A DNA stretch of 64,000 nt from Nitrospirota bacterium (GCA_043816165.1 JBDRIE010000033.1:7064-71063); one strand, 5' to 3'. Shown: positions 3,771-61,496, numbered from the stretch's first letter. The notes: a model not told the origin generated them from the letters alone. Numbers and translations are program-made.

Positions 3771-4515
3771 AATCAGCTCTAGTTACATTGATCTGGCCTG
3801 ATGTCAGATCAACAAAAATATTTCTCTTATATCGATCTTCCTCGCTTTCCCCATACTTCATCTCGATTCGAACCTCCAACGGCGCATTTCCACTCATTGA
3901 ATCAATATATATTTCACCGTTTGGAGGAATAAACGTAATCGCAATATTTTCATTCAAATTAATCTCATTTTCATCGTAAATTCCCAAAATATTCACCTCT
4001 TTATCCAGCCCAAGGTCGGAAAAGGCAGTAGGATCATTAGCCAGCTCCTCATATTCGCACCCTTCCCTACTCCAAGTCTCTGTCACAGAATCAAATTCAA
4101 GTTTATTACTATATGAAATTTCAAACTTCTGAATCGAATATTCACTACCATCACCACTCAAATAATATCCAAAACAATTCGCAATATTTTCCTCGGTACC
4201 AATATATTCTTCATCCGCAGCAATCGCCTCACTAATCTCCTCATAAGCCATACCCCCAAAATCTCCATGAATCGTATTGTCACGAAGTTCATAGAACTGA
4301 GCCGTAAAACTGTCTGCAGCAAAGTCCAAAAGAGCTGTTCGCCTATACTCCGTGTACCCGTTAATCGCCAAAGTTGAAAGCACCGCGATAATGAAGAGCA
4401 CGACCATCATCTCCACCAAAGTAAACCCCTTTGACGGAGCTCCCTCCGGTCGCGCTAATTGTGTTAGAGGACTCCACTCCGTTGCGTCCTGCAATTTTTT
4501 TTTTAGAATTTTCAT
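3751..4515 (-). CDS. Type IV minor prepilin (FimT/GspH-like) with extended leader
   Basis: KG|FTLVEMMVVLFIIAVL; the leader carries about 20 extra residues encoded by GC-rich hairpin DNA. Confidence 0.85.
   Translation of the reverse strand: MKILKKKLQDATEWSPLTQLARPEGAPSKGFTLVEMMVVLFIIAVLSTLAINGYTEYRRTALLDFAADSFTAQFYELRDNTIHGDFGGMAYEEISEAIAADEEYIGTEENIANCFGYYLSGDGSEYSIQKFEISYSNKLEFDSVTETWSREGCEYEELANDPTAFSDLGLDKEVNILGIYDENEINLNENIAITFIPPNGEIYIDSMSGNAPLEVRIEMKYGESEEDRYKRNIFVDLTSGQINVTRADYAEEEA
4433..4492 (-). repeat. GNA-capped hairpin modules in frame in the pilin leader
   Basis: Minus strand AGGAC-GCA-AC-GGA-GT-GGA-GTCCT and GC-GA-CC-GGA-GG-GA-GC. Confidence 0.7.
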
Positions 4516-4517
4516 AA

Positions 4518-5786
4518 TTATACTCCGATAGCTCCACTCAAATTAAAGATTGGAGCCATTATTGCTAATGCTAATAGAGCCACGAAAAGCCCCACAAACA
4601 AGATCATAAATGGTTCAAATACAGATGATAACTTCCTTATTGAATTATCAATCTCCCTTTGATATTGATCTGAAATTTTTTGTGAAATTTTACCGAGCGT
4701 AGCGGATTTTTCACCTACACGAAGCATTTGTGTAACTTCCGGTGGGAACAAAAATTCGCTATTCTCTAATGTTTCCGAAATCTTTCCTCCAACTCGTACA
4801 TTATCGATAATTTCCTGAGCCTGAGCTTTATACACTCTGTTCGAAAGTGAACTTCCTGCAATTTTCAAACTCTTAATCACCGGCAAACCTGAATCAATCA
4901 AAAGTCCAAGCAAACTAATAAACCTTAATACATATACTTTTCGAGACAATGTTCCAATTATATAGATTCTCAGTTTCCAATAATCCCACGACAACGCACC
5001 ATAATCACTTTTTACAAAAACATTAAACACTCCATATCCAGCAAAACCCACAATCAAAATCACCCACCAATAATTCACCAAACCACTTTGAATCGTGATA
5101 AGCATTCTAGTCGGCAAAGGCAATGCGTCATCAGCAATTCCACCTTCTTTAAGCAAATTCAGAAGAGTCGGGAACACCCACACGAGCATACCAATACTCA
5201 CCAAAACCAAAACGGCAAGAACAGCAATTGGATAAACCGCCGCTCCCCACAATTTCATCTGAAGATCATGTTTCTTATCTAATTGTTCGGAAAGCTTGAA
5301 AAGCATGATATCAAGACGCCCTGTAGCTTCTCCCGATCGCACAATTCCCACTTCCGCCTCATCAAAAACATCCTCAAAACGACTCATCGCCTCACTCAAA
5401 TTCGATCCACTCTCACAAGTGTATCCAATCGTGTTCAGAACACGTTGAAACCTTCGATTCGGAGATCTCCCCGCCAAGGCTTTCACCGCTTGCACAACAG
5501 GAATTCCCCCATCCACCATTACAGCAAGCATATGAAAGAAATACGACTTATCTCTCAGGCTAATCTTTGTCCTATCAATCAAGAAATCATTAATCCTGGT
5601 AAAAATCCCCTGACTCGAACTATCATAAACACCATAAATCACTTTGTCTGACTCTTTTTTACCAAAACTCTTCACACTTTTCAGCACGTCAGCTCCTCCC
5701 ACAACACCCTCAACCATATAATCGGTTGCGTCCACATCAGCGGGCTGAGCAGCTTTTTCTTCGGGTTTTTGAATATCAGATTCCAT
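4518..5786 (-). CDS. pilC: Type IV pilus platform protein PilC (T2SS F family)
   Basis: Two GspF repeats (MVDGGIPVVQAV..GEATGRLD; LIDSGLPVIKSL..GEKSATL..EP) and three TM helices. Confidence 0.93.
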   Translation of the reverse strand: MESDIQKPEEKAAQPADVDATDYMVEGVVGGADVLKSVKSFGKKESDKVIYGVYDSSSQGIFTRINDFLIDRTKISLRDKSYFFHMLAVMVDGGIPVVQAVKALAGRSPNRRFQRVLNTIGYTCESGSNLSEAMSRFEDVFDEAEVGIVRSGEATGRLDIMLFKLSEQLDKKHDLQMKLWGAAVYPIAVLAVLVLVSIGMLVWVFPTLLNLLKEGGIADDALPLPTRMLITIQSGLVNYWWVILIVGFAGYGVFNVFVKSDYGALSWDYWKLRIYIIGTLSRKVYVLRFISLLGLLIDSGLPVIKSLKIAGSSLSNRVYKAQAQEIIDNVRVGGKISETLENSEFLFPPEVTQMLRVGEKSATLGKISQKISDQYQREIDNSIRKLSSVFEPFMILFVGLFVALLALAIMAPIFNLSGAIGV

Positions 5787-5795
5787 ATTTATTTA

Positions 5796-6380
5796 TTATT
5801 GTACTTCAGAAAAATAAGCTTCCATCGCGAGCGAAAAAGTTGCTCTCTTGATATTAAGAACATCGAGCTCATTTAACTGAACATTGATAGATTCAACTTT
5901 GAAAATTCTTGGATTTTGCTCAACACCTTCCAAGAAAGTCACCAAATCTGTGTAATTTCCTTCAAAACTGGCATTAATTCTAAGCGCATCTACTCCATCA
6001 TAAGCCGAGTTCCCTTCTCCAAAACTCAAAGATTTAAGCTCAATATCGTATGTGTCGGTAATTTGGATAATATCTTTAATCACCTCGTCTTGCTTCATTG
6101 TCGAAGGAATAGCTCGCAAACTTTCAATCTTTTGCACTTCTGTAGCAATACCCAACTCCTCCTCCGCAGTTTCAAATTCAGAAATCTTACTCTTGATCGA
6201 TTCAATCTCTACTTCCTTAGAAGTAATATCTGTTTCCATTGCAGAAACATCTGCTGCTAAAGATTTTGTGTAGAAAAAATAACCAACAACTGCTACCAAA
6301 ACCAATAGAACACCTATAAAAGTTCCTGCTTTAGATGGAGCCCTGAACTCAATATCATTTTTTTGAACTTTATCAGCCAT
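5796..6380 (-). CDS. pilO: PilO-like pilus alignment protein
   Basis: N-terminal TM, coiled coil, and GNYTDLVTFLEGVEQNPRIFKVESI motif. Confidence 0.85.
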   Translation of the reverse strand: MADKVQKNDIEFRAPSKAGTFIGVLLVLVAVVGYFFYTKSLAADVSAMETDITSKEVEIESIKSKISEFETAEEELGIATEVQKIESLRAIPSTMKQDEVIKDIIQITDTYDIELKSLSFGEGNSAYDGVDALRINASFEGNYTDLVTFLEGVEQNPRIFKVESINVQLNELDVLNIKRATFSLAMEAYFSEVQ

Positions 6381-6405
6381 ATTAAATCTATTTAAATATT
6401 AATAA

Positions 6406-6996
6406 TTAACGTAAAACCGCCTCGCTTTCCTCTACTTCAACCACATCTTCTTCATCACTTTCCAGCAAAGCTAAAGGATCCGCCTCCACATATGTTGCTC
6501 CAAATAGGAAAGTAAGAATTTCCTTACCATCCTCATCCGTTCCTCCAGAAATAGATGGAACAAAACTTCCTACAAATGAATAACTATTTTCAAAAGCTTT
6601 AATCAAATCAGCAACATCAAAATATGGATCTTTCCTATCGGGATAAGTCTTAACGTTCATATTAATATCATTCGAAGATGAACCTGAATATGAAAGAATC
6701 TCCACAATTGAAAGTCCATTATCAGTAGGAACTGTCTTTCTAATAGTCTTTATAACTTTCGACCACTGAATCATATCGCCCTCCAAATCATCCAGTGTCC
6801 TCTTCGCATTTATGGCTTCCAAAAGCTCTTTACTCTCAAACTGAAGCAACTTGTTTTTATACTCAGTCAAATTAGCCTCAACTCGTTTCAGATCCTCTTC
6901 ATTGGAAGCTTTATTCCAAAAAGTATATCCGGTATATGCACCCATTCCCAGAACAATAATAATCCCAAGAATAAGTAATGTAGAAGTTCTTTTCAT
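6406..6996 (-). CDS. PilN-like pilus alignment protein
   Basis: TM plus coiled coil plus WSKVIKTIRKTVP; directly upstream of pilO. Confidence 0.7.
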   Translation of the reverse strand: MKRTSTLLILGIIIVLGMGAYTGYTFWNKASNEEDLKRVEANLTEYKNKLLQFESKELLEAINAKRTLDDLEGDMIQWSKVIKTIRKTVPTDNGLSIVEILSYSGSSSNDINMNVKTYPDRKDPYFDVADLIKAFENSYSFVGSFVPSISGGTDEDGKEILTFLFGATYVEADPLALLESDEEDVVEVEESEAVLR

Positions 6997-7092
6997 AATA
7001 TTTGTTTTTATTTTTTATTCCCTATATTTTACCAGATTTTGCACTAATCGTAAAGGGTTGTAATATGAGGTTAAACCCCGTATACAAAAACT

Positions 7093-7404
7093 ATGAGAAA
7101 AATCAACGAATCATTCACCTGCAAAAATTGTGGTGAAAAGAACCCCAAACTCGAAAAATCATGCAGAAACCACTGCAGAAAATGCCTTTATTCCCTTCAC
7201 GTAGACAAAAACACGCCCGGAGACAGAGAATCATCCTGCAAAGCACTCATGGAACCTATAAAAGCTGAACAAACTGGCAAAAAAGGCTGGATGATCTATC
7301 ATAAATGCACAAAATGTAGCAAAATAATCCCAAACACAGTCGCAGACGACGATAACTTCGAAAAAGTAATAGAGCAGTCGCAACAGCGACTATTGCCAAA
7401 CTAG
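7093..7404 (+). CDS. RNHCP-domain Zn-binding protein
   Basis: FTCKNCG...RNHCRKCLYSLHVD..PGDR...C...HKCTKC. Confidence 0.9.
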   Translation: MRKINESFTCKNCGEKNPKLEKSCRNHCRKCLYSLHVDKNTPGDRESSCKALMEPIKAEQTGKKGWMIYHKCTKCSKIIPNTVADDDNFEKVIEQSQQRLLPN

Positions 7405-7414
7405 TCCCAACAAA

Positions 7415-8404
7415 ATGAATCCACAAGAAGCTAAAAAACTAGAGAAGAAAATCCACAAAATTTTCGCCAAATATCTATCAAAAAATAACACCGTAATTGC
7501 CGGGATTTCAGGTGGTCCGGATTCCATCTTTTTACTGAAATTTTTGGCCGAATTTCCCATAAAAATCCATGTCGCCCATCTAAATCATCTACTCCGAAAA
7601 GAAAGCGGAAACGATGAAAAATTAGTCAAAGATTTCACTGAAAAACTAAACGAAAAACTGGACAACAACGCCATTTCCTTCCATTCAAAAAGCGTAGATA
7701 TCAAAAAAATCAGCAAAAAATCCAAAAAAGGAATCGAAGAAACAGGTCGAGCAGAAAGATACAAATTTTTCAACCAACTCGCAAAAAAACACAAAGCCAC
7801 GTTCATCATCACAGCTCACCACGCAGACGACAATTTGGAAACAATTCTTCTAAACCTAACGAGAGGAGCGACTCTCCAAGGTTTGACAGGAATGAAGACC
7901 TTAGACACAAACTTGCTCCGTCCCCTTTTACCTATTACAAAAGCGCAAATCCAGGATTATCTCAAATTCAAACGCATCCCATTCATCATTGAAAAATCCA
8001 ACCTCACCGACGAATACAACAGAAACCTCATTCGAAACAAAGCAATCCCCCACCTCAAAAAAATCAACCCAAATATCGCACTCACAACCACAAAAAATAC
8101 CGAAAATCTCAGAGAAATCCAAGACTATCTCGCAATTCAAGCTCAAAACTGGCTCAAACACCACTCCACAAAATCCTCTACAAAACTACCAGCCAAATCC
8201 CTAACAAAACTCCATCCGGCCCTCCAAAAAACCATACTCAGAGAACTCTATAAATCCCTCACCGGTGACACAAAAAACCTCGAGAATACCCACATCAACG
8301 AAATCCTCCACCTAATCTCACAAAACATCGGCAACAAACAAAAAAAATTCGGAAAACTCCTACTCACACTCAAAAACAACAGTATCACAATCAAAAAACT
8401 CTAA
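7415..8404 (+). CDS. tilS: tRNA(Ile)-lysidine synthetase
   Basis: SGGPDS PP-loop, TAHHADDNLET, RPLL and RNLIR motifs; upstream of ftsH. Confidence 0.95.
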   Translation: MNPQEAKKLEKKIHKIFAKYLSKNNTVIAGISGGPDSIFLLKFLAEFPIKIHVAHLNHLLRKESGNDEKLVKDFTEKLNEKLDNNAISFHSKSVDIKKISKKSKKGIEETGRAERYKFFNQLAKKHKATFIITAHHADDNLETILLNLTRGATLQGLTGMKTLDTNLLRPLLPITKAQIQDYLKFKRIPFIIEKSNLTDEYNRNLIRNKAIPHLKKINPNIALTTTKNTENLREIQDYLAIQAQNWLKHHSTKSSTKLPAKSLTKLHPALQKTILRELYKSLTGDTKNLENTHINEILHLISQNIGNKQKKFGKLLLTLKNNSITIKKL

Positions 8405-8476
8405 ATTCTCATTGCAAAAATCACCAATTTCGTACACTATAAAGGCACTTAAAATCTTAAATGCCCAAATTTTATT

Positions 8477-12191: not shown

Positions 12192-12200
12192 AATGAGGCC

Positions 12201-12578: not shown

Positions 12579-13447
12579 GAAAGTTAATAGAATGCATCCC
12601 AAATTTTAGCGAAGGCACAAAGCCCGAAGTTATTTACCAAATCGTAAAATCGATCGCTCAATTTTCCAATGTACATATTTTAGATATTAATCGAGACGCA
12701 GACCACAACAGATCCGTCATAACCTTCGTCGGCGAACCAAATAGTGTAATAGAGGCGGCATTCCAAGCAACAAAAACTGCTGCAAAATTGATAAATCTCA
12801 AAAATCACAAAGGAGTTCATCCACGTATCGGAGCTACAGATGTAATCCCTTTAGTCCCAATCAAAAATATTACATCCAAAGAATGCGTTGCATTAGCGAA
12901 AAAACTTGGCAAAAGAATTGGCGAAGAATTAAAAATTCCAATCTATTTATATGAAAAAGCTGCAAAAACCAACGAAAGAAAAAATTTAGCAAACATAAGA
13001 TCGGGAAAAATCTCCGGCAAACCGGACTTCGGCCCGGAAAAACTCGGAAAAGCCGGTGCAACAGTTGTAGGAGTACGAAATTTTCTCATAGCATTCAATA
13101 TAAACCTAAAATCTAATGATCTAGGCTCCGCCAAACAAATAGCTGCGAAAATAAGAAAATTTCCCTCTGTAAAAGCGCTCGGCCTTGAACTAAAATCCAA
13201 AAAAGCAGTACAAGTCTCAATGAATCTAACAAACTATAAAAAAACAACTCCCCTCCAGGCGTTCAAAGCAGTAAAGAAAGAAGCCCACGCCCTTGGAATA
13301 GAAATTTCTGAAAGCGAACTGATCGGAATCGCTCCAAAAGATTCCATGCCACGCGACCCGGAAAAAACGCTCCTCCTAAACACCTTCCACCGCAATCAAA
13401 TCGTTGACTTTTCCCGCTTATTAATCAATAATACTCCTCGCTCTTAA
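12575..13447 (+). CDS. ftcD: Glutamate formiminotransferase (FT domain only)
   Basis: IECIPNFSEG, DADHNRSVIT, HKGVHPRIGATDVIP, PDFGP, QVSMNL. Confidence 0.93.
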   Translation: MRKLIECIPNFSEGTKPEVIYQIVKSIAQFSNVHILDINRDADHNRSVITFVGEPNSVIEAAFQATKTAAKLINLKNHKGVHPRIGATDVIPLVPIKNITSKECVALAKKLGKRIGEELKIPIYLYEKAAKTNERKNLANIRSGKISGKPDFGPEKLGKAGATVVGVRNFLIAFNINLKSNDLGSAKQIAAKIRKFPSVKALGLELKSKKAVQVSMNLTNYKKTTPLQAFKAVKKEAHALGIEISESELIGIAPKDSMPRDPEKTLLLNTFHRNQIVDFSRLLINNTPRS

Positions 13448-13878
13448 ACAAGTTTGAGTGATCGCCCCGCCAACGGCGGGGAGGAAAGTCCGAGCACCAC
13501 GGGAAATCGTAGCCGGTAACACCGCGTCGCCCCGCCACGGCGGGGTAGGGAAAGTGCCACAGAGACAATACTATCCGTCTTCCAGTTGCGTAGCGCAGCG
13601 GAGCAACTCTACTTAAAGCTCAACCGAGCCGAAGGCGAGTCATTATCCCTGTTGCGAAGCAACAAACTAGGATGGAGAAAGGTGAAAAGCCCCGCTTAGC
13701 GGGGACAAGCCCCTCGGGGCAAGTTGGTAAACCCTACGAGGTCGCAAGGTGAGATGGAAGAGTTTGTTTGCCCCCAAATGCACTCATACTCTCTCGCCGC
13801 TCGATCCCGCCAACGGCGGGACTAGATAGATGATCACAGCCCTTCGGGGTACAAAACTCGGCTTATGACAACTGGTTT
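13446..13878 (+). ncRNA. rnpB: RNase P RNA
   Basis: Conserved GAGGAAAGTCCG, GAAAGTGCCACAGA, GGTGAAA, GGTAAACCC, TAGATAGATGATC and ACAAAACTCGGCTTA; P1 formed by AAACAAGTT/AACTGGTTT. Confidence 0.96.
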
Positions 13879-13903
13879 AGGAGCGAACTTTTTATACCCC
13901 ATC

Positions 13904-27300: not shown

Positions 27301-29007
27301 ATGAAAAACTTACAAATATCTCTTTTCAATTCGATTACAAAAATCTCAAAAGAATCCAGGTTAGTGCCTGTACTTGGAGAAGCTCTCAGTGCAGGAATAA
27401 AAAAAATAGCGACAGATGAAACAATCCACAAACAAGCCAAATCTGAAAAACTCAAAAAAGCAACAAAACAAAAATTAAGTAGCGATAGAAAAAAACTGAT
27501 GGAAGACCCCGCCGCCACACTAACAATACCAAAAACTCCGCAAAAGAAAACACCAAGTCCTTCTAAAGATTTTTTTAAATCTTTACGAAAAGCTATCCCA
27601 TTAAGTTATAATTCCTTCAGCCATTTTGATGGCGAAAAAGGATTAAAAAAACTTATTGACCTTAGACCCAAAGGTTTTTTCTTAAATACGGACAAATTAA
27701 AAAAAGAAGCCCCAAATTTATTTGAAAAACTTTTCAATTATGCCCTGGAAAAATTAAAAGCAAGAGACCTTTTTAACGCATCGTTTTTCCGCAAATTGGA
27801 AAAAGTTTTAATACAAACAGGTAAAGCAAAAAAACTGGAAAAATTAAGAAAAAAAAGAAAACTCACACAAAAAGTCCTGAAACATGTATCAGAAAATTTT
27901 TTAAAGAGATCCAAGAAACTCTTTACAAAAATAACTAAAGAACTGGTTACCAAAACCGAAATGACCCCAACAAAAAGAAGATACATATTAAAAACTTTCG
28001 ATAAAGAAATGCCCCTTCTAGTAAAAAGAAACCTTTTAAAGGATATTTCCATCCAAAATTTTTACAAAATATCCCATAAATGGTTGAATAAATTTATACC
28101 CTCAGACAAAAATTCGGATCGCAAAAAATCAGAATTTATCATCAGAATCGCAAGAAATCTTTACTTGGAAAAAAAATCAATAAATAAACAAAATGTTCAA
28201 AATGAATATTTGGATATAATAGCCTCCCAAAAACAAAATGAAAAAACAACAATTTACCAAAAAAGGAATATAATATTCCTCGCAAATAACGAAAAATCTA
28301 AAAACGGACAATCAAGATTTAGAAATCCAGCAATAATATCATCAATAAGAACACAGGGAGGTATTTTACCGGAAAACAAAATATTAATGGGAGAAAACAA
28401 TAAGCAAGATCTATTAAAGAAAAAAAACAACTTTTTGACCTTTCTAAGTAACACAAAAGGACCATTAACAGCACATATTAACGCCCACGGAGGACCTAAT
28501 GCAATATACTTATCAGGAGGACAATTAGTAAACGGAAAAATTGGAGAATCCAAATATGATGTAAAAATAACCTATAAAGAAATTGCGAACGCTTTGATAC
28601 AAAGAAACAAAAATTTTCCTCAGGAAAAACCCCCAATATTAATTTTCGACACCTGCTATAATCATACGATTATGAGAAAAATTTATGCGGAAATAAAAGG
28701 AAAAACGCATCCTCCTATAACAATAGGAGCTTCTGAATATAACCAATTTTCTATCATCGACTCAACAAATAAATACGGATCCACATTCAATCAATACGCA
28801 CTAAAAATGCAAACAGCCACAAAAGACAATCCGTTAAGAATTAAAGATATAATTAAAAATCAATATTTAAGTGATACAAATGTCACTATTTACGTACCAA
28901 CCTTCCAAGGAAAAATCAAACAAATAGTAGAAAAAAGAAGAATACGAAGAAAAAAACAATTAAGACTACCCGGAAGACCACCAATCGACGAAACGGCAAA
29001 TGTTTAA
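27301..29007 (+). CDS. Lys-rich protein with probable C-terminal caspase-like (clan CD) peptidase domain
   Basis: AHINAHGG (H396) and ILIFDTC (C452), then ITIGAS..QFS..GSTF; very AT-rich. The ORF is secure, the function is inferred. Confidence 0.6.
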   Translation: MKNLQISLFNSITKISKESRLVPVLGEALSAGIKKIATDETIHKQAKSEKLKKATKQKLSSDRKKLMEDPAATLTIPKTPQKKTPSPSKDFFKSLRKAIPLSYNSFSHFDGEKGLKKLIDLRPKGFFLNTDKLKKEAPNLFEKLFNYALEKLKARDLFNASFFRKLEKVLIQTGKAKKLEKLRKKRKLTQKVLKHVSENFLKRSKKLFTKITKELVTKTEMTPTKRRYILKTFDKEMPLLVKRNLLKDISIQNFYKISHKWLNKFIPSDKNSDRKKSEFIIRIARNLYLEKKSINKQNVQNEYLDIIASQKQNEKTTIYQKRNIIFLANNEKSKNGQSRFRNPAIISSIRTQGGILPENKILMGENNKQDLLKKKNNFLTFLSNTKGPLTAHINAHGGPNAIYLSGGQLVNGKIGESKYDVKITYKEIANALIQRNKNFPQEKPPILIFDTCYNHTIMRKIYAEIKGKTHPPITIGASEYNQFSIIDSTNKYGSTFNQYALKMQTATKDNPLRIKDIIKNQYLSDTNVTIYVPTFQGKIKQIVEKRRIRRKKQLRLPGRPPIDETANV

Positions 29008-29047
29008 TCATCTTGCTCCGCCCCCTCTTTCATATTATGATTCAAGC

Positions 29048-29998
29048 ATGCACTCCTTCATTCGCAAAATTCGAAATCAAGCTAAAAAAAATCCTAAGCA
29101 CATTGTCTTTCCCGAAGGTGAAGATGAGAGAGTTCAGAAAGCGACAAAAATAATAATCAAAGAAGGTATTGCAAAAATAACACTCCTGGGAAACCCCAAG
29201 AAAATTAAGCCAATAAAAAATGTTGAGATAATTGACCCAAAAACTTCAGAACTCAAAGACTCTTTTGCAAAAGAATTAGTAAAATTACGAAAATCAAAAG
29301 GCCTCACTCCCCCACAAGCTCGTGAACTGCTAAAAGACATGAATTATTTTGGAACAATGATGGTTCATATGGACTTAGCCGATGGAATGGTAACCGGAAC
29401 TACAAATTCAACAGCTGATTCTATAAGACCGGCACTCCAGATCATCAAAACTGAAGAAAAATTTCACAAAGTTTCCGGAGTTTTCTTCATGGTTTTAGAA
29501 AAAAGACTGCTTCTATTTGCAGATGCAGCAATCACAGTCGAGCCAGACGCCCACGCACTTGTGGACATAGCAATCGACACAGCTGAAACCGCCAAAAAGT
29601 TTGGCATTAAGCCAAAAGTAGCCCTCCTCTCCTTCTCCACAAAAGGCTCAGCCGCGCACCCAAAACTCGACAAAATACGAGAAGCTCTAAATATGATAAA
29701 ATACAAACGACCAAAACTAATAGTAGACGGAGAACTGCAAGTCGACGCGGCACTAGTCCCGGAAGTAGCAAAGAAAAAATGTCCAAAATCCCCAATAAAA
29801 GGTGATGCAAACGTACTCATTTTCCCGGATTTGGAATCATCAAACATCGCATACAAACTGGTAGAACGACTCGCAAAAGCTCGTGCAATCGGACCACTAC
29901 TCCAAGGACTAAAAAAACCGGTGAACGACCTATCTCGAGGATGTAATTACAATGATATAGTAAACGTAACCGCTTTCACCAGTTGTGAATGTAAATAA
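29048..29998 (+). CDS. pta: Phosphate acetyltransferase
   Basis: IVFPEGEDER, LSFSTKGS, DGELQVDAA, PVNDLSRGC. Start at ATG 29048, after TTGCTC-N17-TATGAT. Confidence 0.95.
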   Translation: MHSFIRKIRNQAKKNPKHIVFPEGEDERVQKATKIIIKEGIAKITLLGNPKKIKPIKNVEIIDPKTSELKDSFAKELVKLRKSKGLTPPQARELLKDMNYFGTMMVHMDLADGMVTGTTNSTADSIRPALQIIKTEEKFHKVSGVFFMVLEKRLLLFADAAITVEPDAHALVDIAIDTAETAKKFGIKPKVALLSFSTKGSAAHPKLDKIREALNMIKYKRPKLIVDGELQVDAALVPEVAKKKCPKSPIKGDANVLIFPDLESSNIAYKLVERLAKARAIGPLLQGLKKPVNDLSRGCNYNDIVNVTAFTSCECK

Positions 29999-37481: not shown

Positions 37482-37556
37482 GGGGCCATCGTCTAGTGGT
37501 TAGGACACTAGGTTTTCATCCTAGCAACAGGGGTTCGATTCCCCTTGGCCCTACCA
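37482..37556 (+). tRNA. tRNA-Glu(TTC)
   Basis: Cloverleaf with GGGGCCA/TGGCCCT acceptor stem, CTAGG-TTTTCAT-CCTAG anticodon arm, GGTTCGATTCC and encoded CCA. Confidence 0.97.
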
Positions 37557-37560
37557 TTGA

Positions 37561-37594
37561 AAAAACAACTCTGCCGAAGGTAGAGGTGGTTTTT
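37561..37594. terminator. Probable bidirectional intrinsic terminator
   Basis: AAAAACAACTCTGCC-GAA-GGTAGAGGTGGTTTTT between the convergent tRNA and ORF. Confidence 0.7.
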
Positions 37595-54009: not shown

Positions 54010-54010
54010 A

Positions 54011-55765: not shown

Positions 55766-55815
55766 ATTATTGTTTAATACAGCTTTGCAAACGCTAATTT
55801 ATGCTTACTGTTACA

Positions 55816-56400
55816 CTAGAATTCGTACTTGATCCCCATGTCCAGCATTTCCTTTTTTAGTGCTTTCAACGCTCTATGCTGAAGTATCCTCAAACTACCT
55901 TCACTTTTACCCAAAATATCCGCTATTTCAGTATTAGTAAGCTCATTAATAAATTTATACAAAATTATATCTTGATAACTTTGTTTCAAGTTTTTCATAG
56001 CACCCTTCAAATTCTCCTTGTCTAATGTCCGCTCAGCCATACGAATAGCATTGTGTTCCCTATCATGAGTAGGAACATCTATACCTAATTCACTAAATTC
56101 ACGATCTTTTCTTGATCTGTAATAATCAACCACAAGATTATGCGCAATTCTGTACAGCCACGCTGAAAACGAGTTCTTTTTTTTCACTTTGTATTTATCA
56201 ATATTCTCCCAAACTTTCAAAAACACAATCTCTACCAAATCCTCCGCATCCGTTGATTTAACACGATAAAACACATATCGATATATCTGATCGATAAAAA
56301 GATCATAAAGTTGCGAAAACGCGTCATGGTCACCTTCCTTCACCAGAAGAACCAAGGCTTCTACTTTAGCTTTCTTGTTTTTCTTCTCATCATTTGACAT
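55816..56400 (-). CDS. ECF sigma factor
   Basis: GDHDAFSQLY, DAEDLVEIVFLKVW, FSAWLYRIAHN, EIADILGKSEGS..HRA. Confidence 0.93.
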   Translation of the reverse strand: MSNDEKKNKKAKVEALVLLVKEGDHDAFSQLYDLFIDQIYRYVFYRVKSTDAEDLVEIVFLKVWENIDKYKVKKKNSFSAWLYRIAHNLVVDYYRSRKDREFSELGIDVPTHDREHNAIRMAERTLDKENLKGAMKNLKQSYQDIILYKFINELTNTEIADILGKSEGSLRILQHRALKALKKEMLDMGIKYEF

Positions 56401-56531
56401 TACAAAAAGTTAACCGAGCATGAGTACTAAACATCAAAACTATGAAAAAGTCAACACACGAACAAGCGTGTTGAAAAAATCGAAAAAAACCATTACATTT
56501 CTTTCGACCAATATTTTTTAACTCATTTATC

Positions 56532-56954
56532 ATGGCGATCACAAAGGAAGAATTTATTAAGGAACTAAACAAAGACCTCGAATACGAATACGCTGCCGCT
56601 ATACAATACGTACAACACTCTTCAGTTATTACGGGACCGGAGTATGATGCTATTGCCAAAGAGCTGATAGTTCACTCTAATGAAGAAATGGCTCATGCTA
56701 TTTCTATTGCAACAGCCATCTCAGATTTGGGAGGAACTCCAACTATAGATGTAGACGAAAGACACGTTTCAGAAAATTCAAAAGTAATGCTGGAACAAGA
56801 CCTGGAAGGTGAAGAAACTGCAATCAGACGCTACAAAGAAAGAGTAATGCAAGCAGAAGAACTTGGTGAATACGGAATCCGACGTGTACTTGAAGACGTT
56901 CTAATGCAAGAAGAAGAACACCGAAGAGATATCCTAAGTTCTTTAGGAAGATAA
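56532..56954 (+). CDS. Bacterioferritin/ferritin-like di-iron protein
   Basis: EYAAAIQY, EEMAHA, EETAIRRY, EEEH. Confidence 0.88.
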   Translation: MAITKEEFIKELNKDLEYEYAAAIQYVQHSSVITGPEYDAIAKELIVHSNEEMAHAISIATAISDLGGTPTIDVDERHVSENSKVMLEQDLEGEETAIRRYKERVMQAEELGEYGIRRVLEDVLMQEEEHRRDILSSLGR

Positions 56955-57869
56955 ATACTCTTCGCATCTCTTCACCTCATCCTTACTCCCTATAAAAATT
57001 GGAGTTCTTTGATCTAACTTTTCTACCACCTTTTCCAAAATCCGCATTTTCCCATCAGTTGAAGCCCCACCAGCATGTTCCATTAACAAACTCATCGGTG
57101 CGCACTCAAACAAAAGCCTCAATTTTCCATCGGGAGCATCTTTGTATCCAGGATAAGAGAAAATCCCATTACCTTTCAGAAGAATTTGATTAATATCAGG
57201 AACCATTCCTCCGCTATATCGCAACGTATATTGCTCTTTCATCCAATAATTCACGAGCTTCAAATAATCCTCACGCACAGCACTCGCTCTCAAATTCCCG
57301 GGAGCAAACATTTTCCCTTCGCCGACATGAATATCACGATTATTCATCACAAATTCACCTTTATCGTCCATCTGAAACTTCACAACTCCTTTTTTCACGG
57401 TCAAAATAATAGTTGTGCTCGGCCCATAAACAGCAATCATCGACGCCAGCTGATCATCACCCTTCACTCCAATAAAAGTATCGGTCTTGTAAATTCCAAC
57501 AATCGTTCCAACAGCCAAATTCACATCAACCAACGACGAACCATCCAAAGGATCATAACAAGCACCATATTCCCCTTTCGAAGACCCCGCCGTGGCGGCG
57601 GCTCCAACGTCCATTTCATCAGGCAACTCCTCAGACGCAACCACACCCACATATTCATTTTTCTTGAACAATTCCTCCAAAATTTTGTCGCTCAAAACAT
57701 CCAAAGCCAGCTGTTCCTCCCCATAAATATTCTCAGTCCCGGCTTTTCCCTTATCAGAAATCTTTATCGCCTCGGCAATACTTGCTACCGCCTCCTTCAA
57801 AGTCATAAAAATCGAATGAAGTTCGTCAGAAACTCCAACTTCCTTCAAATATTCGCTTAAAGTCTGCAT
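56943..57869 (-). CDS. fbp: Fructose-1,6-bisphosphatase class I
   Basis: ASEE, DPLDGSS, RYSGGMVPD, KLRLLFEC. Confidence 0.95.
   Translation of the reverse strand: MQTLSEYLKEVGVSDELHSIFMTLKEAVASIAEAIKISDKGKAGTENIYGEEQLALDVLSDKILEELFKKNEYVGVVASEELPDEMDVGAAATAGSSKGEYGACYDPLDGSSLVDVNLAVGTIVGIYKTDTFIGVKGDDQLASMIAVYGPSTTIILTVKKGVVKFQMDDKGEFVMNNRDIHVGEGKMFAPGNLRASAVREDYLKLVNYWMKEQYTLRYSGGMVPDINQILLKGNGIFSYPGYKDAPDGKLRLLFECAPMSLLMEHAGGASTDGKMRILEKVVEKLDQRTPIFIGSKDEVKRCEEYLSS
57578..57603 (-). repeat. CCGCC-AC-GGCGG palindrome in frame within fbp
   Basis: Minus-strand CCGCCACGGCGGGGT is identical to rnpB 13532-13546; encodes part of AAATAGSS. Confidence 0.75.
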
Positions 57870-57873
57870 AATA

Positions 57874-58878
57874 TTAATGGTTAAACCACCTTAATAAATC
57901 TTGAATTCTACTCACATATCCCCATTCATTATCATACCAAGCAATCACTTTCACAAAACCATCAGACATCACTTTTGTGCACAATGTATCAATAATCGAT
58001 GAACGGCTATCTTTCCTAAAATCCACTGAAACCAAAGGTTCATCCTCAGTTCCCAAAATCCCTTTCATATCACCTTTTTCATATTTCTTGAAAGCTCCAT
58101 TCACATCCTCCACACTCACGCTTTCCTTAAGCTTCGCCACCACATCCAAACAAGAAACAGTAGGAATTGGTACACGGAATGCCATCCCATCAACTTTTCC
58201 TTCAAGAGCGGGGATCACACGACCGAGAGACTTCATAGCCCCTGTAGTTGTAGGAATTATTGACTCCGTAGTCGCACGAGCACGCCGAAAATCTTTCGGA
58301 TTCGAATTATCAAGTAAGTTTTGGGTAAATGTAAACGCATGAATTGTAGTCACAAATGAAGTCTCAACCCCAAAAGTTTCATGCAATACTTTCATTACCG
58401 GAGCCAGACAATTGGTAGTACAGGAAGCATTTGAAATCACTTTAAAATCTTTTGGATCAAACTCTTTTTCGTTCACTCCCATCACAATATTTGGAACATC
58501 AAGATCCTTGCTGGGAGCGGTAATCAAAACTTTTTTCGCCCCGGCTTGCAAGTGCTTTTCCACATCTGCACGAGCCGTAAATTTTCCCGTAGATTCAATC
58601 ACCACATCAATATCATGCTTTGCCCAATCGAGATCCGCCGGATCCTTTATCTGATAAACATGTACCAATTTCCCATTCACCTTCAAATTATCCCCATCCA
58701 CCTGAATATCAGCATCGCATTTCCCATAAAGAGAATCGTGCTTCAATAAATGCGCATGAGAATCCGCCTCAGCTCGACTATTAATAGCTACAACTTCAAT
58801 ATCATCAGTTTCCAAAGCTTGTCTGTGAAAATCACGACCAATTCGACCATATCCATTAATTGCAATTTTTATCGGCAT
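57874..58878 (-). CDS. gap: Glyceraldehyde-3-phosphate dehydrogenase, probably NADP-preferring (GapB-like)
   Basis: [23 protein letters not shown]; AINSR instead of AINDL and LDNS in the S-loop. Start at ATG 58878. Confidence 0.93.
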   Translation of the reverse strand: MPIKIAINGYGRIGRDFHRQALETDDIEVVAINSRAEADSHAHLLKHDSLYGKCDADIQVDGDNLKVNGKLVHVYQIKDPADLDWAKHDIDVVIESTGKFTARADVEKHLQAGAKKVLITAPSKDLDVPNIVMGVNEKEFDPKDFKVISNASCTTNCLAPVMKVLHETFGVETSFVTTIHAFTFTQNLLDNSNPKDFRRARATTESIIPTTTGAMKSLGRVIPALEGKVDGMAFRVPIPTVSCLDVVAKLKESVSVEDVNGAFKKYEKGDMKGILGTEDEPLVSVDFRKDSRSSIIDTLCTKVMSDGFVKVIAWYDNEWGYVSRIQDLLRWFNH

Positions 58879-58921
58879 TTCCGTTAGTTGGTTATTTGAT
58901 AAGCTCACTTCGGCTCCATAA

Positions 58922-59017
58922 CCCCGCCAGGGCGGGGATTCTTCGCCTTATTCGCGGGTCGCTCCCCTTCGGGGGCCAGCGACATGACCCTTCGGGCCTT
59001 CGCGCCATGCGCTCGCA
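58922..59017 (-). repeat. GC-rich hairpin cluster spanning the aldolase C-terminus and intergenic region
   Basis: CCCCGCC-AG-GGCGGGG (58922-58937); minus strand GCCC-GAA-GGGT and GTCGCT..CCCC-GAA-GGGG-AGCGAC. Confidence 0.75.
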
Positions 59018-60042
59018 TATAATTCCGATTTTCCGCTACCCAAAAATGCATCCCGCATCATCATAGCAACGTGCTGCGTCATTGCCTTTTCGGCTTCGGT
59101 GAAATCGAGTTTATCCCATTCTTCTTCAAACTGATCTAATACTTTTCGACGTGGACGACCCAACTCTTCACCTCTCTTATCCATTCTATCAAGCAATTCT
59201 TGTGGAAAATGTTTAAACCAAATGTCAGAAATACTTGTAGCATAGTTAAACTTACGTGCCCCGTTCTCAACACACTTATTGAAAACTTCAGGAGTCAACC
59301 CGCTACCTCCATGCATTACACCATAAGCGCTCAAAGGTCGAACCATTAAGCATATTTCCTTTATTCGATCAAAACCAATAATAGGCTGCTTCAAATAGTT
59401 TCCATGCCCATTCCCAACAAAGAATGCAATCGCATCCGCCTCGGTTTCCTCAATAAGCCTCTTACAATCTTCCGCTTTTGAATAATACTGAGTAATGGTC
59501 TCTTCCACATTCGGATCCGCAAGTGCCGCAGCATTTCCGATTTCCCCATCCTCAACTTCCAGAGAAATCCCCAGAGGATGAATACGAGCCGCAACTTCCT
59601 TACATTTAGCTATATTTTCGTCTAATGGATACTTGGACAAATCAACCTCAGCTGAAGAAAACCCAGCTTCGATTGTTCTTTGGATACATCCATCAACATC
59701 TTTTTGAATATGATCATGATGAAGACAAACCGGAACGCTATATCCATACTTTTCAATCATTTTTTCGATTGCAGGATAAGCAAAGCCGGCCAATCTCTCC
59801 GGTGACATATTACAATAAACCGCCTCACTCTCAGCAATTTCCAGAATCACAGGAGACTTCTCCTGCCAAGCCGCCTCAAGAACAGCATTTAATATAAATC
59901 GACTCCTCGCATTACACGCAGGAATTCCAAATCCGTGCTCATCCGCAACAGATAGAAGAGTTTGCAAATTAGACAAAGTGTATCCCCCAGTCATTTCTCG
60001 CACATGAGGATTATTTGCCTTAGAAAATTCAGCAACCACCAT
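58948..60042 (-). CDS. fba: Class II fructose-bisphosphate aldolase
   Basis: CLHHDH, GNGHG, MHGGSG, KFNYAT; in an operon with gap and fbp. Confidence 0.9.
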   Translation of the reverse strand: MVVAEFSKANNPHVREMTGGYTLSNLQTLLSVADEHGFGIPACNARSRFILNAVLEAAWQEKSPVILEIAESEAVYCNMSPERLAGFAYPAIEKMIEKYGYSVPVCLHHDHIQKDVDGCIQRTIEAGFSSAEVDLSKYPLDENIAKCKEVAARIHPLGISLEVEDGEIGNAAALADPNVEETITQYYSKAEDCKRLIEETEADAIAFFVGNGHGNYLKQPIIGFDRIKEICLMVRPLSAYGVMHGGSGLTPEVFNKCVENGARKFNYATSISDIWFKHFPQELLDRMDKRGEELGRPRRKVLDQFEEEWDKLDFTEAEKAMTQHVAMMMRDAFLGSGKSELYASAWREGPKGHVAGPRRGATRE

Positions 60043-60129
60043 AGTCTATAGGTTTATGAAATAAATGCCCTTTAAAAGCCGATTCGAGAATAATAGAATC
60101 CCTTAATAAACTCAACTTAAAATTATCAT

Positions 60130-60483
60130 CTATTTACTGGCAATCGCCGTATCGCTGTTCATATAAACGATTTGATTTGGTTTTTTCATTGACTGAACCT
60201 TCGAAGATTGCTGAATGTAATTTAGAGAACGAACTTGGGAGATTTGCATGTCCATCCTTTCGCTCTCCTTAACAATTTCCTGATGGGCAGACTCAAGAGA
60301 ATTAAGAACATAACCTTTTGTTACTTGTCGTGCTGAAAACATTAATGCTATCACCGTAATAAGCGCAACAAACACAACAAGAGAAGTAATCAGAAATGCA
60401 GGACCAAGCTCAAGTTTAGGAAATAACCGGCGAATTAAGCTTCGTCTGTATTCTGTACCTCGATTAAGAATGAGTTGTGACAT
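60130..60483 (-). CDS. FtsL-like cell division protein
   Basis: TM plus coiled coil directly downstream of rsmH. Confidence 0.7.
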   Translation of the reverse strand: MSQLILNRGTEYRRSLIRRLFPKLELGPAFLITSLVVFVALITVIALMFSARQVTKGYVLNSLESAHQEIVKESERMDMQISQVRSLNYIQQSSKVQSMKKPNQIVYMNSDTAIASK

Positions 60484-60524
60484 TTATTTTTAAGTGATAA
60501 GAATGAGTGAGTTTAGGGAGGAAC

Positions 60525-61496
60525 CTATGGGTTCCTGAGTTTTTCATATGCTCTTAGCTTCGCGCTTCTGCTCCGTGGATTCTCTGTAATCTCTTGATCT
60601 GTAGGTATTACCGGTTTTTTTGTAAGTTTTTTCACTATTGGATCGCCGAATGTTTGGTATATAGACTGTTCTTCTGTAGCAGGTGGTTTCTCCAACTCTT
60701 TAAAGAACTTCTTTACGATGCGATCTTCTAGTGAATGATAGGAAATTATGACAACCCTTCCACCTATCTTCAGGACCTCCATTGATTGTTCGAGCGTTTC
60801 TTTTAGAACGTTGAGCTCGTCGTTTACTTCGATTCGAAGGGCTTGAAATATTTTGGTGGCCGGGTGTGTTTTTGATGCTTTCTTTGATCTCTTTCTTGGG
60901 AGAATCGCCTCTAGAAACTCACCAAATTCAGTTGTTGTACTAAATTTTTTATCGTTTCTTCTAGAACATATCTCCCTGGCAGCCTTTCTAGACATTTTTT
61001 CCTCTCCATATTCGAAGAAAATTTTAGTCAATTCTTCCTCAGAGTAAGTATTTATAACTATCTCTGCAGTCAGCTCTCCTTGCGGATCAAATCTCATATC
61101 CAGAGGACCTTCTTTTGAAAAAGAGAATCCCCTACTCGCATCATCTACATGAGGAGAAGAAAGACCAAGATCAAACAAAATTGCATCAATCTGCATTTCC
61201 TGGTTGGTAGAGACACTGCGCTTCGCTGCGTGTCTGCCGGTAATCCTACTTTTCAAGTGTCGAAAATTATCGTGAATGAAATCAATTTGTTTTTCATAGT
61301 TCTTCAATCTCTTTTTTGCCTCTTCCAGGTTCCTTTCATCCTGCTCAAAAGCAATCAATCTTCCCTTTTCTCCAATGCTTCTGAGAATCTCTGCAGCATG
61401 TCCACCTAAACCTAATGTTGCGTCTACCACTACTTCTCCACCTTTCAAATTTAGATATTTTTGAACATCATTTTTTAAAACTGACACGTGTTCCAT
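60525..61496 (-). CDS. rsmH: 16S rRNA m4C1402 methyltransferase
   Basis: HVSVL, DATLGLGGH, DLGLSS, PLDMR, FQALRIEVN, SYHSLEDR, NPRSRSAKLR. Confidence 0.98.
   Translation of the reverse strand: MEHVSVLKNDVQKYLNLKGGEVVVDATLGLGGHAAEILRSIGEKGRLIAFEQDERNLEEAKKRLKNYEKQIDFIHDNFRHLKSRITGRHAAKRSVSTNQEMQIDAILFDLGLSSPHVDDASRGFSFSKEGPLDMRFDPQGELTAEIVINTYSEEELTKIFFEYGEEKMSRKAAREICSRRNDKKFSTTTEFGEFLEAILPRKRSKKASKTHPATKIFQALRIEVNDELNVLKETLEQSMEVLKIGGRVVIISYHSLEDRIVKKFFKELEKPPATEEQSIYQTFGDPIVKKLTKKPVIPTDQEITENPRSRSAKLRAYEKLRNP
61206..61238 (-). repeat. GNA-zipper hairpin in frame within rsmH
   Basis: Minus strand AGACAC-GCA-GC-GAA-GC-GCA-GTGTCT; on the plus strand the stem is preceded by GTAG. Confidence 0.75.

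Follow-up and report, generated by a model that had tools for sequence, protein, structure and literature searches.

The GNA-triloop hairpins in the 64,000-nt stretch of DNA analysed here (the window) are probably modules from a family of mobile, non-autonomous repeats whose structure is maintained in Peregrinibacteria-like CPR bacteria. The host is a Peregrinibacteria-like groundwater CPR bacterium, and the genome holding the window (G000; 1.07 Mb, 96% complete) was compared with its congeners G001, G002 and G003, all being MAGs. A sequence-only reading of the window had proposed a structure-encoded, strand-specific micro-element propagated genome-wide, and this was borne out: the architecture is kept, the stems are compensatory and the counts lie far above background. 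The three stem-GNA-2bp-GNA-2bp-GNA-stem hairpins that it described in a prepilin-type gene, rnpB and rsmH were located exactly as written, and both tandem-GA hairpins were found (Table 1).

Table 1. Element copies, modules and host genes in the window
Feature	Position	Strand	Basis or remark
Prepilin-type gene ORF, host of element copy	3751-4515	-	Pfam N_methyl motif at residues 28-50
Element copy in prepilin-type gene leader	4428-4494	-	R1, E 2.2e-5, model positions 1-75
Tandem-GA (CGAG-block-like) hairpin of the pilin copy	4439-4453	-	
H1 of the pilin copy	4468-4490	-	
rnpB, RNase P RNA, bacterial class A	13445-13883	+	Rfam RF00010, 143 bits, full length
H1 of the rnpB insert	13584-13608	+	
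80-nt insert at P12 tip of rnpB	13585-13664	+	cmscan alignment: P12 terminal loop
Tandem-GA (CGAG-block) hairpin of the rnpB insert	13625-13639	+	CTAC-type spacer between it and H1
Tail of the rnpB insert	13640-13649	+	
Last hairpin of the rnpB insert	13650-13664	+	Stem repeats the H1 stem
tRNA-Glu	37482-37556	+	Upstream of the lone C(GAA)G hairpin
Lone C(GAA)G hairpin	37569-37585	+	13 nt 3' of tRNA-Glu; no R1 match
Module Y as 3' tail of class II fructose-bisphosphate aldolase ORF	58962-59010	-	nhmmer family of 5
rsmH ORF	60525-61496	-	Pfam MraW
In-frame extra segment of rsmH	61192-61235	-	H1 + CTACC-type spacer
H1 of the rsmH segment	61211-61235	-	
Module X, solo, directly after GAPDH stop codon	63965-64000, runs past window end	+	Repeat family of 11

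Using a descriptor composed of a Watson-Crick stem of at least 4 bp, GNA, 2 bp, GNA, the complementary 2 bp, GNA and the complementary stem, 16 matches were found in the genome, 3 of them within the window. The expected count was 0.17 (maximum 2) in 40 first-order Markov simulations, 0.15 (maximum 1) in 40 third-order simulations and 0.13 (maximum 2) in 100 shuffles inside 30-nt blocks, so the motif count does not equal that of a shuffled background. Every other XNY triplet placed in the descriptor gave 0-2 matches at stems of at least 4 bp, TNC being a mere mirror of GNA. Genome-wide, 15 hairpins carried three GNA units, 4 carried two and none carried four to six.

Chance, composition or slippage would make these hairpins a G/A-rich pentanucleotide microsatellite, (GCGAA)n, mistaken by eye for structure. 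The core of the hairpin does read as one GNA plus two GCGNA units, and GCGAR pentamers turn up repeatedly along the element. However, the enrichment is limited to the three-unit form, and the preference for this form together with the absence of longer ones indicates that the hairpins are not pentanucleotide slippage noise. Moreover, the stems on either side of the core are always complementary and covary, and the copies are scattered across 20+ contigs. Such an origin is refuted by the enrichment, the unit-number preference and the stem covariation, and has virtually no chance of being correct.

The simple C-GNA-G hairpins that had been grouped with the family fared less uniformly. The one closing the rnpB insert is present, but the class as such shows no clear enrichment, 681 GNA triloops on 4-bp stems being a mid-rank value among 16 triloop classes (span 302-934). 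The supposed simple hairpin at 63964-63974 instead opens a nested module of 51 nt, X, and that at about 58960-59000 is another module, Y. The lone hairpin behind tRNA-Glu exists, but it has no match to the covariance model of the element (R1), and its family membership is doubtful.

The (GNA)3 hairpin is module H1 of an element of ~75 nt with three hairpins. The canonical unit opens with (T)AACA, followed by H1, whose variable Watson-Crick stem of 4-6 bp surrounds the core GNA-GC-GNA-GC-GNA. This core is invariant in form: two G-C pairs separate a 3x3 G·A/N·N/A·G internal loop from a GNA triloop. H2 and H3 are CGAG blocks with tandem G·A pairs, arranged around UAAG or a longer loop in H2 and around GAA in H3, with an RTAGCA linker between them, and the unit closes with a TACWTTATCCC-like tail. 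An RTAG(C/T)A linker stands directly 5' of H3 in most copies; H1 and H2 have no such motif. The two ends of the element, (T)AACA... and ...TTATCCC, do not form an inverted repeat. Shorter subtypes consist of H1 alone, or of H1, a CTAC spacer and a single CGAG hairpin. Additionally, modules X (11 copies in the genome) and Y (about 50 nt, 5 copies) nest within the hairpin loops: nested X is always inserted just 3' of (G/T)AAG of the H1, H2 or H3 loops, and Y nests inside H3 elsewhere.

The stems change by Watson-Crick compensation, and the G·A positions stay fixed, being retained in 29-37 of about 36-40 informative rows. Across 612 pair cells, 96.2% were paired, 12 of the 16 pairs varied on both sides and 138 cells were compensated; these counts lean towards the model because the alignments were fitted to it, and the cells are not independent events because the copies are related. 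Slid-alignment controls reached at most 47% paired, and replication on 23 copies from two other genera gave 92.1%, with 11 of the 16 pairs varying on both sides. Only 3 G·T pairs occurred in the 612 cells, so that the compensation is almost purely Watson-Crick. Nearest-neighbour folding gave unremarkable z-scores: -0.5 to -2.2 for hairpins folded singly, and -0.2 (RNA) or +0.7 (DNA) for the complete unit.

The family comprised 21 copies in the genome by nhmmer and 28 by R1 at E<0.01, and the element load is about 30-45 copies. Among the three window loci, R1 recognised the pilin copy only; those in rnpB and rsmH belong to a subtype that is divergent or partial. The covariance model found 16-27 copies in each congener, and the element occurred in 35 of 101 genomes of the order, 13 of them with at least four copies, a patchy distribution. 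None of 147 sampled genomes outside the order matched at 1e-4. No Rfam family matched the elements at E<=1 across 20 copy loci, the window at Rfam gathering score held rnpB and tRNA alone, and the literature searched contained no description of such an element. As far as checked, the family is thus undescribed, as the first reading had suspected. Rfam matches beside the copy loci were to tRNA, the 3' part of a group I intron (weak) and Cyano-2 (a chance match).

The copies lie after stop codons, after tRNA CCA ends, in P12 of rnpB and in frame in rsmH and the prepilin leader, and their neighbours are core genes (S6/ssb, S15/pnp, EF-G/EF-Tu, FtsA/FtsZ, L27, ATP synthase beta and glmS). Units sit solely at tolerated positions, namely behind stop codons or CCA ends, at rnpB hairpin tips and in variable protein segments. 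The claim that all hairpins lie on the sense strand held genome-wide on the basis of crude ORF calls: among credible copies inside ORFs 7 of 7 were sense, 10 of 10 between co-directional features were co-oriented, and 0 of 29 G000 loci had both neighbours opposite. One G000 locus was overlapped by an 82-aa opposite-strand ORF, probably spurious, and in another genome, G098, both called neighbours were opposite at 1 of 8 loci.

Mobility was indicated by filled and empty sites. The spacers downstream of trmD and between fusA and tuf, rpsO and pnp, and ftsA and ftsZ (4 of 4 tested) all varied in occupancy among the congeners: filled versions hold 69-80 nt where empty ones have 1-5 nt. Neither target duplication at the four filled/empty junction sets nor terminal inverted repeats in the units were seen. 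At the trmD site, the G002 copy includes X and Y, which the G000 copy lacks. The rsmH and pilin loci also differ between congeners by in-frame presence or absence. These comparisons show units that appear to have been cleanly gained or lost, insertion and precise deletion fitting alike (four genomes, no outgroup polarity).

Placed by the Pfam N_methyl motif, the pilin element spans leader residues about 8-29, and the G002 pilin has an orthologous H1 with compensated stem changes, minus the following 36 nt. The G000 rsmH is 13 codons longer than that of G002, which has no extra segment, and in G003 the same stem, with one compensated pair, encloses a loop of 4 nt where G000 has the 13-nt core. 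In the aldolase ORF, the Pfam profile stops at residue 331 of 364. The P12 insert is absent from rnpB of all three congeners, and the rnpB inserts of G000 and G001 sit at different helices. In a DNA contig of run X2, 13584 is followed by 19 other letters, which form a short hairpin, and then by 13665; joints seen in rnpB contigs carry such other letters and stem from relatives. An RNA-library contig covers 13548-13704 with 0 differences, leaving the insert unchanged (one metatranscriptome, in which DNA carry-over is possible), which is consistent with co-transcription and retention. A self-splicing or excised intervening sequence was rejected, since this contig keeps the insert (one run, contigs only) and the CDS copies are in frame.

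These observations also bear on whether the hairpins are a host-selected functional RNA motif, serving as an intercistronic or 3'-end stabiliser, a processing site or the site of a lineage-specific RNA-binding protein, and spread by usefulness rather than mobility. The strict sense orientation, the position right after stop codons and tRNA ends, the retention in RNase P RNA and the location between genes of unequal expected dosage (fusA-tuf, rpsO-pnp and ftsA-ftsZ) all agree with such a role. Moreover, H2 and H3 keep their sequence between families of the order, a conservation that host-function constraint could explain just as well, and 3'UTR regulation by REP elements in E. coli is reported in bioRxiv 10.64898/2026.03.23.713779. 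However, all four intergenic sites are empty in at least one congener, copies occur where a regulator makes little sense (rnpB P12, in-frame rsmH and the pilin leader), and the distribution within the order is patchy. Furthermore, the units have no U-tract and are thus not classical terminators. We consider this explanation unlikely as a substitute for a mobile repeat family, although the sense orientation and the RNA-library contig favour constraint at the RNA level.

Under another explanation, the hairpins would be ssDNA substrates of an HUH/Y1 enzyme (REP-RAYT or IS200/IS605-derived PATE), folding on one DNA strand at the replication fork and being cut and pasted 3' of a short target. The sequence-only reading had offered an HUH-nuclease substrate as one possible mechanism, and hairpin-built units without TIR or TSD, the (G/T)AAG rule of module X, the RTAG motif directly 5' of H3 and the scarcity of G·T pairs would all suit it. 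The elements also prefer the strand that is locally C-rich (20 vs 4 in G000, 7 vs 1 in G098); the corresponding counts for genes are 346 vs 446. In addition, CGAG blocks (C:G, sheared G:A, A:G, G:C) and C-G-closed GNA loops are NMR-solved stable DNA folds according to passages of PMC10085684. By sequence, H2 and H3 are literally CGAG blocks and the element loops are C-G-closed GNA, as in d(GCGAAGC)-type mini-hairpins; those folds are known from oligonucleotides or a human promoter, whereas here they form a dispersed bacterial repeat family. Near-pure Watson-Crick compensation, the DNA stability described in those passages and the C-rich-strand bias may point to a role at the DNA level.

However, the skew relation is reversed in G053 (1 vs 4), and in the 4 G000 cases with gene strand and skew in conflict, element orientation follows transcription. 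The Y1/RAYT transposase (PF01797) was not found in G000 or in G001-G003, MAGs that may miss IS copies, and does not co-occur with the element, being present in 2 of 13 genomes with at least four copies vs 24 of 88 others (101 MAGs of the order). No TnpB-type domain was found either. An HUH/Y1 substrate is therefore highly unlikely, and a DNA-uptake mark, also suggested in the first reading, is unlikely at about 30-40 copies per Mb. The search for other mobilisers found no reverse transcriptase (RVT_1), no split element copies flanking an ORF and no integron integrase (best TIGR02249 score 109.7 bits vs a cut-off of 265), generic tyrosine recombinases alone being present.

Several known systems resemble the element in part. 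PATE and attC substrates are recognised as folded single strands, have no TIRs or TSDs and are expected to show replication-strand bias. IS200/IS605 PATEs, with subterminal hairpins, are mobilised by TnpA (Y1), often with TnpB, and inserted 3' of a fixed tetra- or pentanucleotide; the element shares the hairpins and, for module X, the insertion rule, but TnpA and TnpB were not found. Integron attC sites lie directly after cassette stop codons, and the element also follows stop codons, but without an integrase above cut-off or cassette arrays, its copies being dispersed among core genes. In REP/RAYT systems, the imperfect palindrome has a conserved GT[AG]G tetranucleotide at its 5' foot. Like REP/BIME, the element is a mosaic of short, imperfect palindromes that are strand-asymmetric and fall into several hairpin types, and it lies downstream of genes as probably co-transcribed 3'UTR hairpins; the RTAG tetranucleotide adjoining one of its hairpins may be a counterpart of the REP motif. 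Unlike REP, it is strictly sense, has conserved sheared-type G·A pairs in its stems, lacks a RAYT/Y1 gene or its co-occurrence and also lies inside genes and rnpB. Classical MITEs (Correia, ERIC, BOX and RUP) are likewise multi-copy, non-autonomous, often co-transcribed and, in BOX, modular, but they are defined by TIRs and target-site duplications, neither of which was seen at the four filled/empty comparisons. Rickettsia palindromic elements (RPEs) are also known to insert into stable-RNA genes. According to excerpts of PMC10969869, RPEs are small, non-autonomous palindromic repeats, inserted in frame and translated in unrelated protein genes, with a patchy lineage distribution and without a transposase of their own, and in these behaviours they resemble the element. 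They differ in being about 100-150 bp, from another phylum and defined by sequence families, whereas the present element is modular, built on CGAG blocks and (GNA)3 loops with nested sub-modules, and mostly intergenic, right behind stop codons and tRNAs.

For the mobile repeat family favoured here, we infer that a putative trans-acting enzyme would recognise the unit in its folded single-stranded form and copy it, and that the 3' side of (G/U)AAG loops would be the entry point of new modules. Copies that survive would be at most neutral-to-mild stable hairpins in transcripts rather than essential signals, possibly giving REP-like 3'-end or intercistronic protection. More tentatively, and with a modest chance of being right, the units may represent a new hairpin-templated mobile module system, in which CGAG-block/GNA-loop units are copied as folded single strands and integrated by an enzyme unlike known transposases. 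Integration would then occur without TIR or TSD 3' of (G/U)AAG loops, at rnpB helix tips and at stop-codon and CCA ends, into the sense strand of transcribed genes, with an RNA-mediated route as a possible alternative. The C-rich-strand bias would stem either from integration specific to one replication strand or from deletions that hairpins cause on the lagging-strand template. A candidate mobiliser is a multi-copy family of ~300-aa proteins with an HNH-like C-terminus and no Pfam match; if the mobiliser is new, it would bring a new integration chemistry, single-strand or structure-specific.

Although the genomes of CPR bacteria are tiny and streamlined, about 30-45 nested, structure-conserved repeat copies lie in the most conserved operons, the RNase P RNA and the proteins of this one. 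In these MAGs, ORF ends (the pilin leader and the tail of the aldolase) as well as differences in rnpB length are repeat-derived and call for caution in annotation, and the element breaks assemblies, contigs of G001 ending within it. The family gives rise to in-frame insertions in the proteins, and to insertions in the RNAs, of unculturable organisms, and its copies amount to a replicated experiment by nature that tests which non-canonical folds (CGAG blocks and GNA/GNA 3x3 loops) selection keeps in vivo.

The main hairpins described in the sequence-only reading were found in the window: three of the stem-GNA-2bp-GNA-2bp-GNA-stem form, hereafter (GNA)3, with the letters as claimed, two tandem-GA hairpins and one small hairpin. 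Their hosts were likewise those it had guessed, namely the RNase P RNA (RF00010), a prepilin-type protein and RsmH/MraW. In the prepilin-type protein, the N_methyl motif occupies residues 28-50, so the hairpins fall within the leader peptide. This leader has 30 residues, compared with 18 in the congener G002, because of 36 extra nt. The last ~33 residues of a class II aldolase, lying past the Pfam profile, are encoded by module Y, one of two extra units (X and Y) that nest in hairpin loops; the ORF ends at both the aldolase and the prepilin are shaped by repeats.

Coordinates of the hairpins, their hosts and other features (window positions unless a genome and contig are named; G000 is the genome of the window)
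Feature	Sequence	Position	Strand	Remark
(GNA)3 hairpin H1	window	13584-13608	+	in rnpB
(GNA)3 hairpin H1	window	4468-4490	-	in prepilin-type gene
(GNA)3 hairpin H1	window	61211-61235	-	in rsmH
Tandem-GA hairpin	window	4439-4453	-	
Tandem-GA hairpin	window	13625-13639	+	
Small hairpin	window	13650-13664		in rnpB
rnpB (RNase P RNA)	window	13445-13883		RF00010 match
CCCCGCC-N3-4-GGCGGGG hairpin	window	13466-13482		
CCCCGCC-N3-4-GGCGGGG hairpin	window	13530-13546		
CCCCGCC-N3-4-GGCGGGG hairpin	window	63980-63995		
CCCCGCC-N3-4-GGCGGGG hairpin	window	58921-58936	-	
Prepilin ORF	window	3751-4515	-	
Class II aldolase ORF	window	58948-60042	-	
P0003 copy (with others)	G000:C48	6835-7803	-	
P0003 copy	G000:C8	26519-27397		
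P0003 copy	G000:C7	1143-1970		
P0003 copy	G000:C26	28199-28912		
Group I intron 3' part, weak match	G000:C34	~28990-29120		RF00028, 21.5 bits, E 0.039
Tandem array, three element copies	G098:C17	39708-40053		another family of the order
Tandem array, three element copies	G098:C42	49569-49777		another family of the order

The descriptor that the reading had proposed to search against a randomised background returned 16 hairpins in the genome (1.07 Mb, 49 contigs, 96% complete), far over the 0.13-0.17 expected under three kinds of randomisation (maximum 2 in any). The remaining XNY triplet classes gave 0-2 matches at stems of at least 4. Of the hairpins counted, 15 had three GNA units, 4 had two and none had four to six, indicating that the enrichment concerned a symmetric fold, as opposed to pentanucleotide slippage. 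Simple GNA triloops with 4-bp stems numbered 681, which placed them, on a crude count, mid-field among 16 classes. Enrichment was seen for the (GNA)3 form and, by this count, not for the simple C-GNA-G triloops that had been grouped with it.

The flanks of the 16 matches showed that most were H1, the first hairpin of a longer repeat of ~75 nt (the element), for which iterated nhmmer identified 21 copies in the genome. The canonical unit starts with (T)AACA, followed by H1, a variable stem round GNA-GC-GNA-GC-GNA. H2 reads Y-GC-GA-GC-UAAG-GC-GA-GC-R or has a lengthened loop whose extension covaries; after an RTAGCA linker come H3 (Y-GA-GC-GAA-GC-GA-R) and a tail resembling TACWTTATCCC. Both H2 and H3 are 'CGAG blocks' as defined in PMC10085684, which describes, by NMR, thermally stable DNA hairpins formed from C:G / sheared G:A / A:G / G:C blocks and GNA-like loops. 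A covariance model, R1, was built from six copies with the structure supplied by hand, because RNAalifold on a MAFFT alignment, in which the H1 stems were mis-registered, missed the local hairpins. At E<0.01, R1 matched 28 copies in the genome, rising to 32 with the threshold at E<1; some of these reach 119-159 nt because they contain nested inserts. Among the three window loci, only the pilin copy was recognised (E 2.2e-5). The rnpB and rsmH copies represent a shorter subtype, in which H1 is followed by a CTAC-type spacer and in some cases by a single CGAG hairpin and the tail. This subtype was also found in rnpB of G001 and at the ftsA-ftsZ site of G002. Rfam returned no family for the element, either in the scan of the window or for the copies searched, and thermodynamic folding z-scores were not informative on it. 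The H2-H3 motif had 3 matches in metagenome contigs and 0 in viral contigs.

Base pairing was then counted in 42 copies, taken from the genome of the window and those of nine relatives. Standard pairs made up 96.2% of 612 cells, whereas at most 47% of cells paired when the 3' partners were slid by 1-3 columns. Both-sided changes occurred in 12 of 16 pairs, giving 138 compensated cells. The alignments were fitted to R1, and, the copies being kin, the cells are not independent events. The six G·A positions held G and A in 29-37 of ~36-40 informative rows. A second set of 23 copies from two other genera (G098 and G053) was 92.1% paired, with 11 of 16 pairs compensated; a measure of further pair types in this set did not exceed shuffles (192/500). 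At rsmH, G000 and G003 share a common stem in which one pair is changed on both sides, and the 13-nt core corresponds to a 4-nt loop in G003. The pilin H1 of G002 also differs by one compensated pair. Judged from these alignments, the structure of the element is under constraint, and the rsmH comparison provides an independent, clean case.

The constrained form could be RNA or DNA, and we do not rank these two readings. RNA is favoured by the strictly sense orientation of the element. In a position survey of the genome (crude ORF caller; 1008 ORFs, 34 tRNAs and 29 element loci), all 7 copies inside credible ORFs were sense, all 10 between co-directional features were co-oriented, and none of the 29 loci had both neighbours opposite. 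Five copies lay between divergent genes, with a same-strand gene downstream in four. The same rule applied to 12/12 loci in G053 and 7/8 in G098. In several copies the start lies 0-8 nt past a stop codon, and three begin 5-7 nt past the 3' end of a tRNA or of a tRNA 3' half. Neighbouring core genes include trmD, rpsF-ssb, rpsO-pnp, fusA-tuf, ftsA-ftsZ, rpmA, ATP synthase beta and glmS; in the window, module Y makes up the aldolase tail and module X lies at the GAPDH stop codon. On contig C34, the weak group I intron match is followed by an apparent tRNA 3' half ending in CCA and then an element copy, and this region may be an intron-containing tRNA gene. Moreover, in the 4 cases in this genome where gene strand and skew disagreed, the element followed the gene strand. 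Among the contigs of one RNA run, from the same study as a DNA sample, one (157 nt, depth 23) spans the entire rnpB insert and matches it at every position, which fits an insert that is transcribed and kept.

DNA is favoured by the almost purely Watson-Crick compensation (G·T pairs in 3/612 cells of the first set and 6/340 of the second) and by motifs that are classic stable DNA folds. Additionally, elements of this genome lay on the locally C-rich strand in 20 cases versus 4 (5 weak), compared with 346 versus 446 for genes and 14 versus 17 for tRNAs. The bias recurred in G098 (7 versus 1) and at single loci of other genomes (6 versus 1), but G053 disagreed (1 versus 4, 7 weak). Both groups of facts would fit a two-filter model, in which a replication-strand-specific step, either integration or a deletion driven by hairpins on the lagging-strand template, would act alongside selection against antisense copies in transcripts. 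GC skew itself was very strong in the window (-0.05 to -0.39), contig means ranged from +-0.13 to 0.21 (C24-C43), and positive AT skew accompanied it. Gene strand showed no bias relative to skew, with ~50% of coding on the C-rich strand. Strong skew without gene-strand bias is unusual for bacteria.

The four congeners differed cleanly in site occupancy, and empty forms had 1-5 nt in place of the 69-80 nt in G000; at the trmD site, this is the distance from stop to start codon. Neither target duplications nor terminal inverted repeats were seen at the filled and empty sites compared.

Occupancy of four intergenic sites in the genome of the window (G000) and its three congeners
Site	G000	G001	G002	G003
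trmD-downstream spacer	filled	empty	filled, X + Y nested	empty
fusA-tuf	filled	no match	filled	empty
rpsO-pnp	filled	67 nt of unrelated spacer	empty	empty
ftsA-ftsZ	filled	filled, with contig breaks inside	filled by another subtype, with a second copy upstream	empty

Among these four genomes, the 80-nt P12 insert of rnpB occurs in G000 only. In G001, an H1 unit stands in place of another hairpin close to the 3' end of rnpB, and in G002 a full unit lies at this place, but the 3' end of that rnpB looks irregular, possibly through an assembly effect. The polymorphism recurs in contigs of other samples: one from the DNA run X2 joins 13584 to 13665 via a 19-letter short hairpin. A second recurring hairpin, CCCCGCC-N3-4-GGCGGGG, stands in rnpB of G000 for the native P3 and next-helix hairpins of G001 and G003. 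The tip of module X consists of this hairpin as well, which is probably the family A of the sequence-only reading. Module X (11 copies) was always found solo after a stop codon or directly past the (G/T)AAG in a loop of H1, H2 or H3, and module Y (5 copies) within H3 or at an ORF end. The nesting and loop-specific entry of these modules point to a putative structure- or site-specific integration. Contigs C17 and C61 of G001 and C19 of G002 showed ends or odd joints at element copies, at the ftsA-ftsZ site (G001) and the rnpB 3' end (G002). Since the repeat breaks short-read assemblies, copy numbers from MAGs are lower bounds.

R1 matched 35 of the 101 genomes searched in the order. At least four copies were present in 13 of them: every genome of the genus, 4 of the 6 searched in a second genus, G008, G076, G081, G088, and G098 from another family. 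Outside the order, 147 genomes of the phylum were sampled and none matched at 1e-4, which doubles as a specificity control. Two of the closest genomes (RsmH identity 86% and 76%) are labelled Nitrospirae/Nitrospirota and are probably mislabelled bins of this Peregrinibacteria-like genus.

With its enrichment far over chance, sense orientation and covarying stems, the structure-encoded, strand-specific micro-element postulated in the sequence-only reading was borne out. The HUH/RAYT mechanism it had offered as an example found no support: a RAYT/IS200 (Y1) mobiliser was not found and did not co-occur with the element. TnpB-type and RVT_1 domains were also not found, nor was an integron integrase over its cut-off. 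No autonomous version with element halves round an ORF was seen, all 5'/3' half pairs being at most 54 nt apart. All-vs-all blastp of the 1008 crude ORFs, run for candidate transposases, yielded 19 pairs, and the annotated multi-copy proteins were surface proteins (DUF11, SLH, FG-GAP). The only unexplained multi-copy family was P0003 (~300 aa, without a Pfam hit), with a His/Asn-rich C-terminal motif that looks HNH-like by eye. It has 4-14 copies, with 14 matches in this genome and up to ~30 per genome, and occurs in 77/101 genomes of the order. Its presence in 12/13 element-rich genomes but also in 65/88 others gave no useful co-occurrence with the element. One P0003 copy in G001 begins 14 nt downstream of an element. 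A DNA-uptake signal of the known kind is unlikely, the element copy number being far too low.

By chemistry, the closest systems are the single-strand substrates of IS200/IS605 type and attC type. By behaviour, the closest are REP/BIME mosaics, whose hairpins likewise follow genes and are co-transcribed with them, and, on this ground alone, Rickettsia palindromic elements, for which PMC10969869 describes in-frame insertion into unrelated genes. However, the RAYT or TnpA of REP/RAYT and IS200/IS605 was not found, the TIR or TSD that define other small repeats were not seen, and the element differs from attC in that no integron integrase exceeded the cut-off. We therefore file it as a new small non-autonomous structured dispersed repeat. 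No description of such an element in Peregrinibacteria/CPR was found in Rfam or in the literature searched, which lay outside subscription journals and supplements. Its insertion in rnpB and in proteins, its nested loop-specific modules and the failure to find a known mobiliser are noteworthy. The element thus represents a clean, testable and previously unrecorded repeat family of CPR genomes with an unusual non-canonical architecture.
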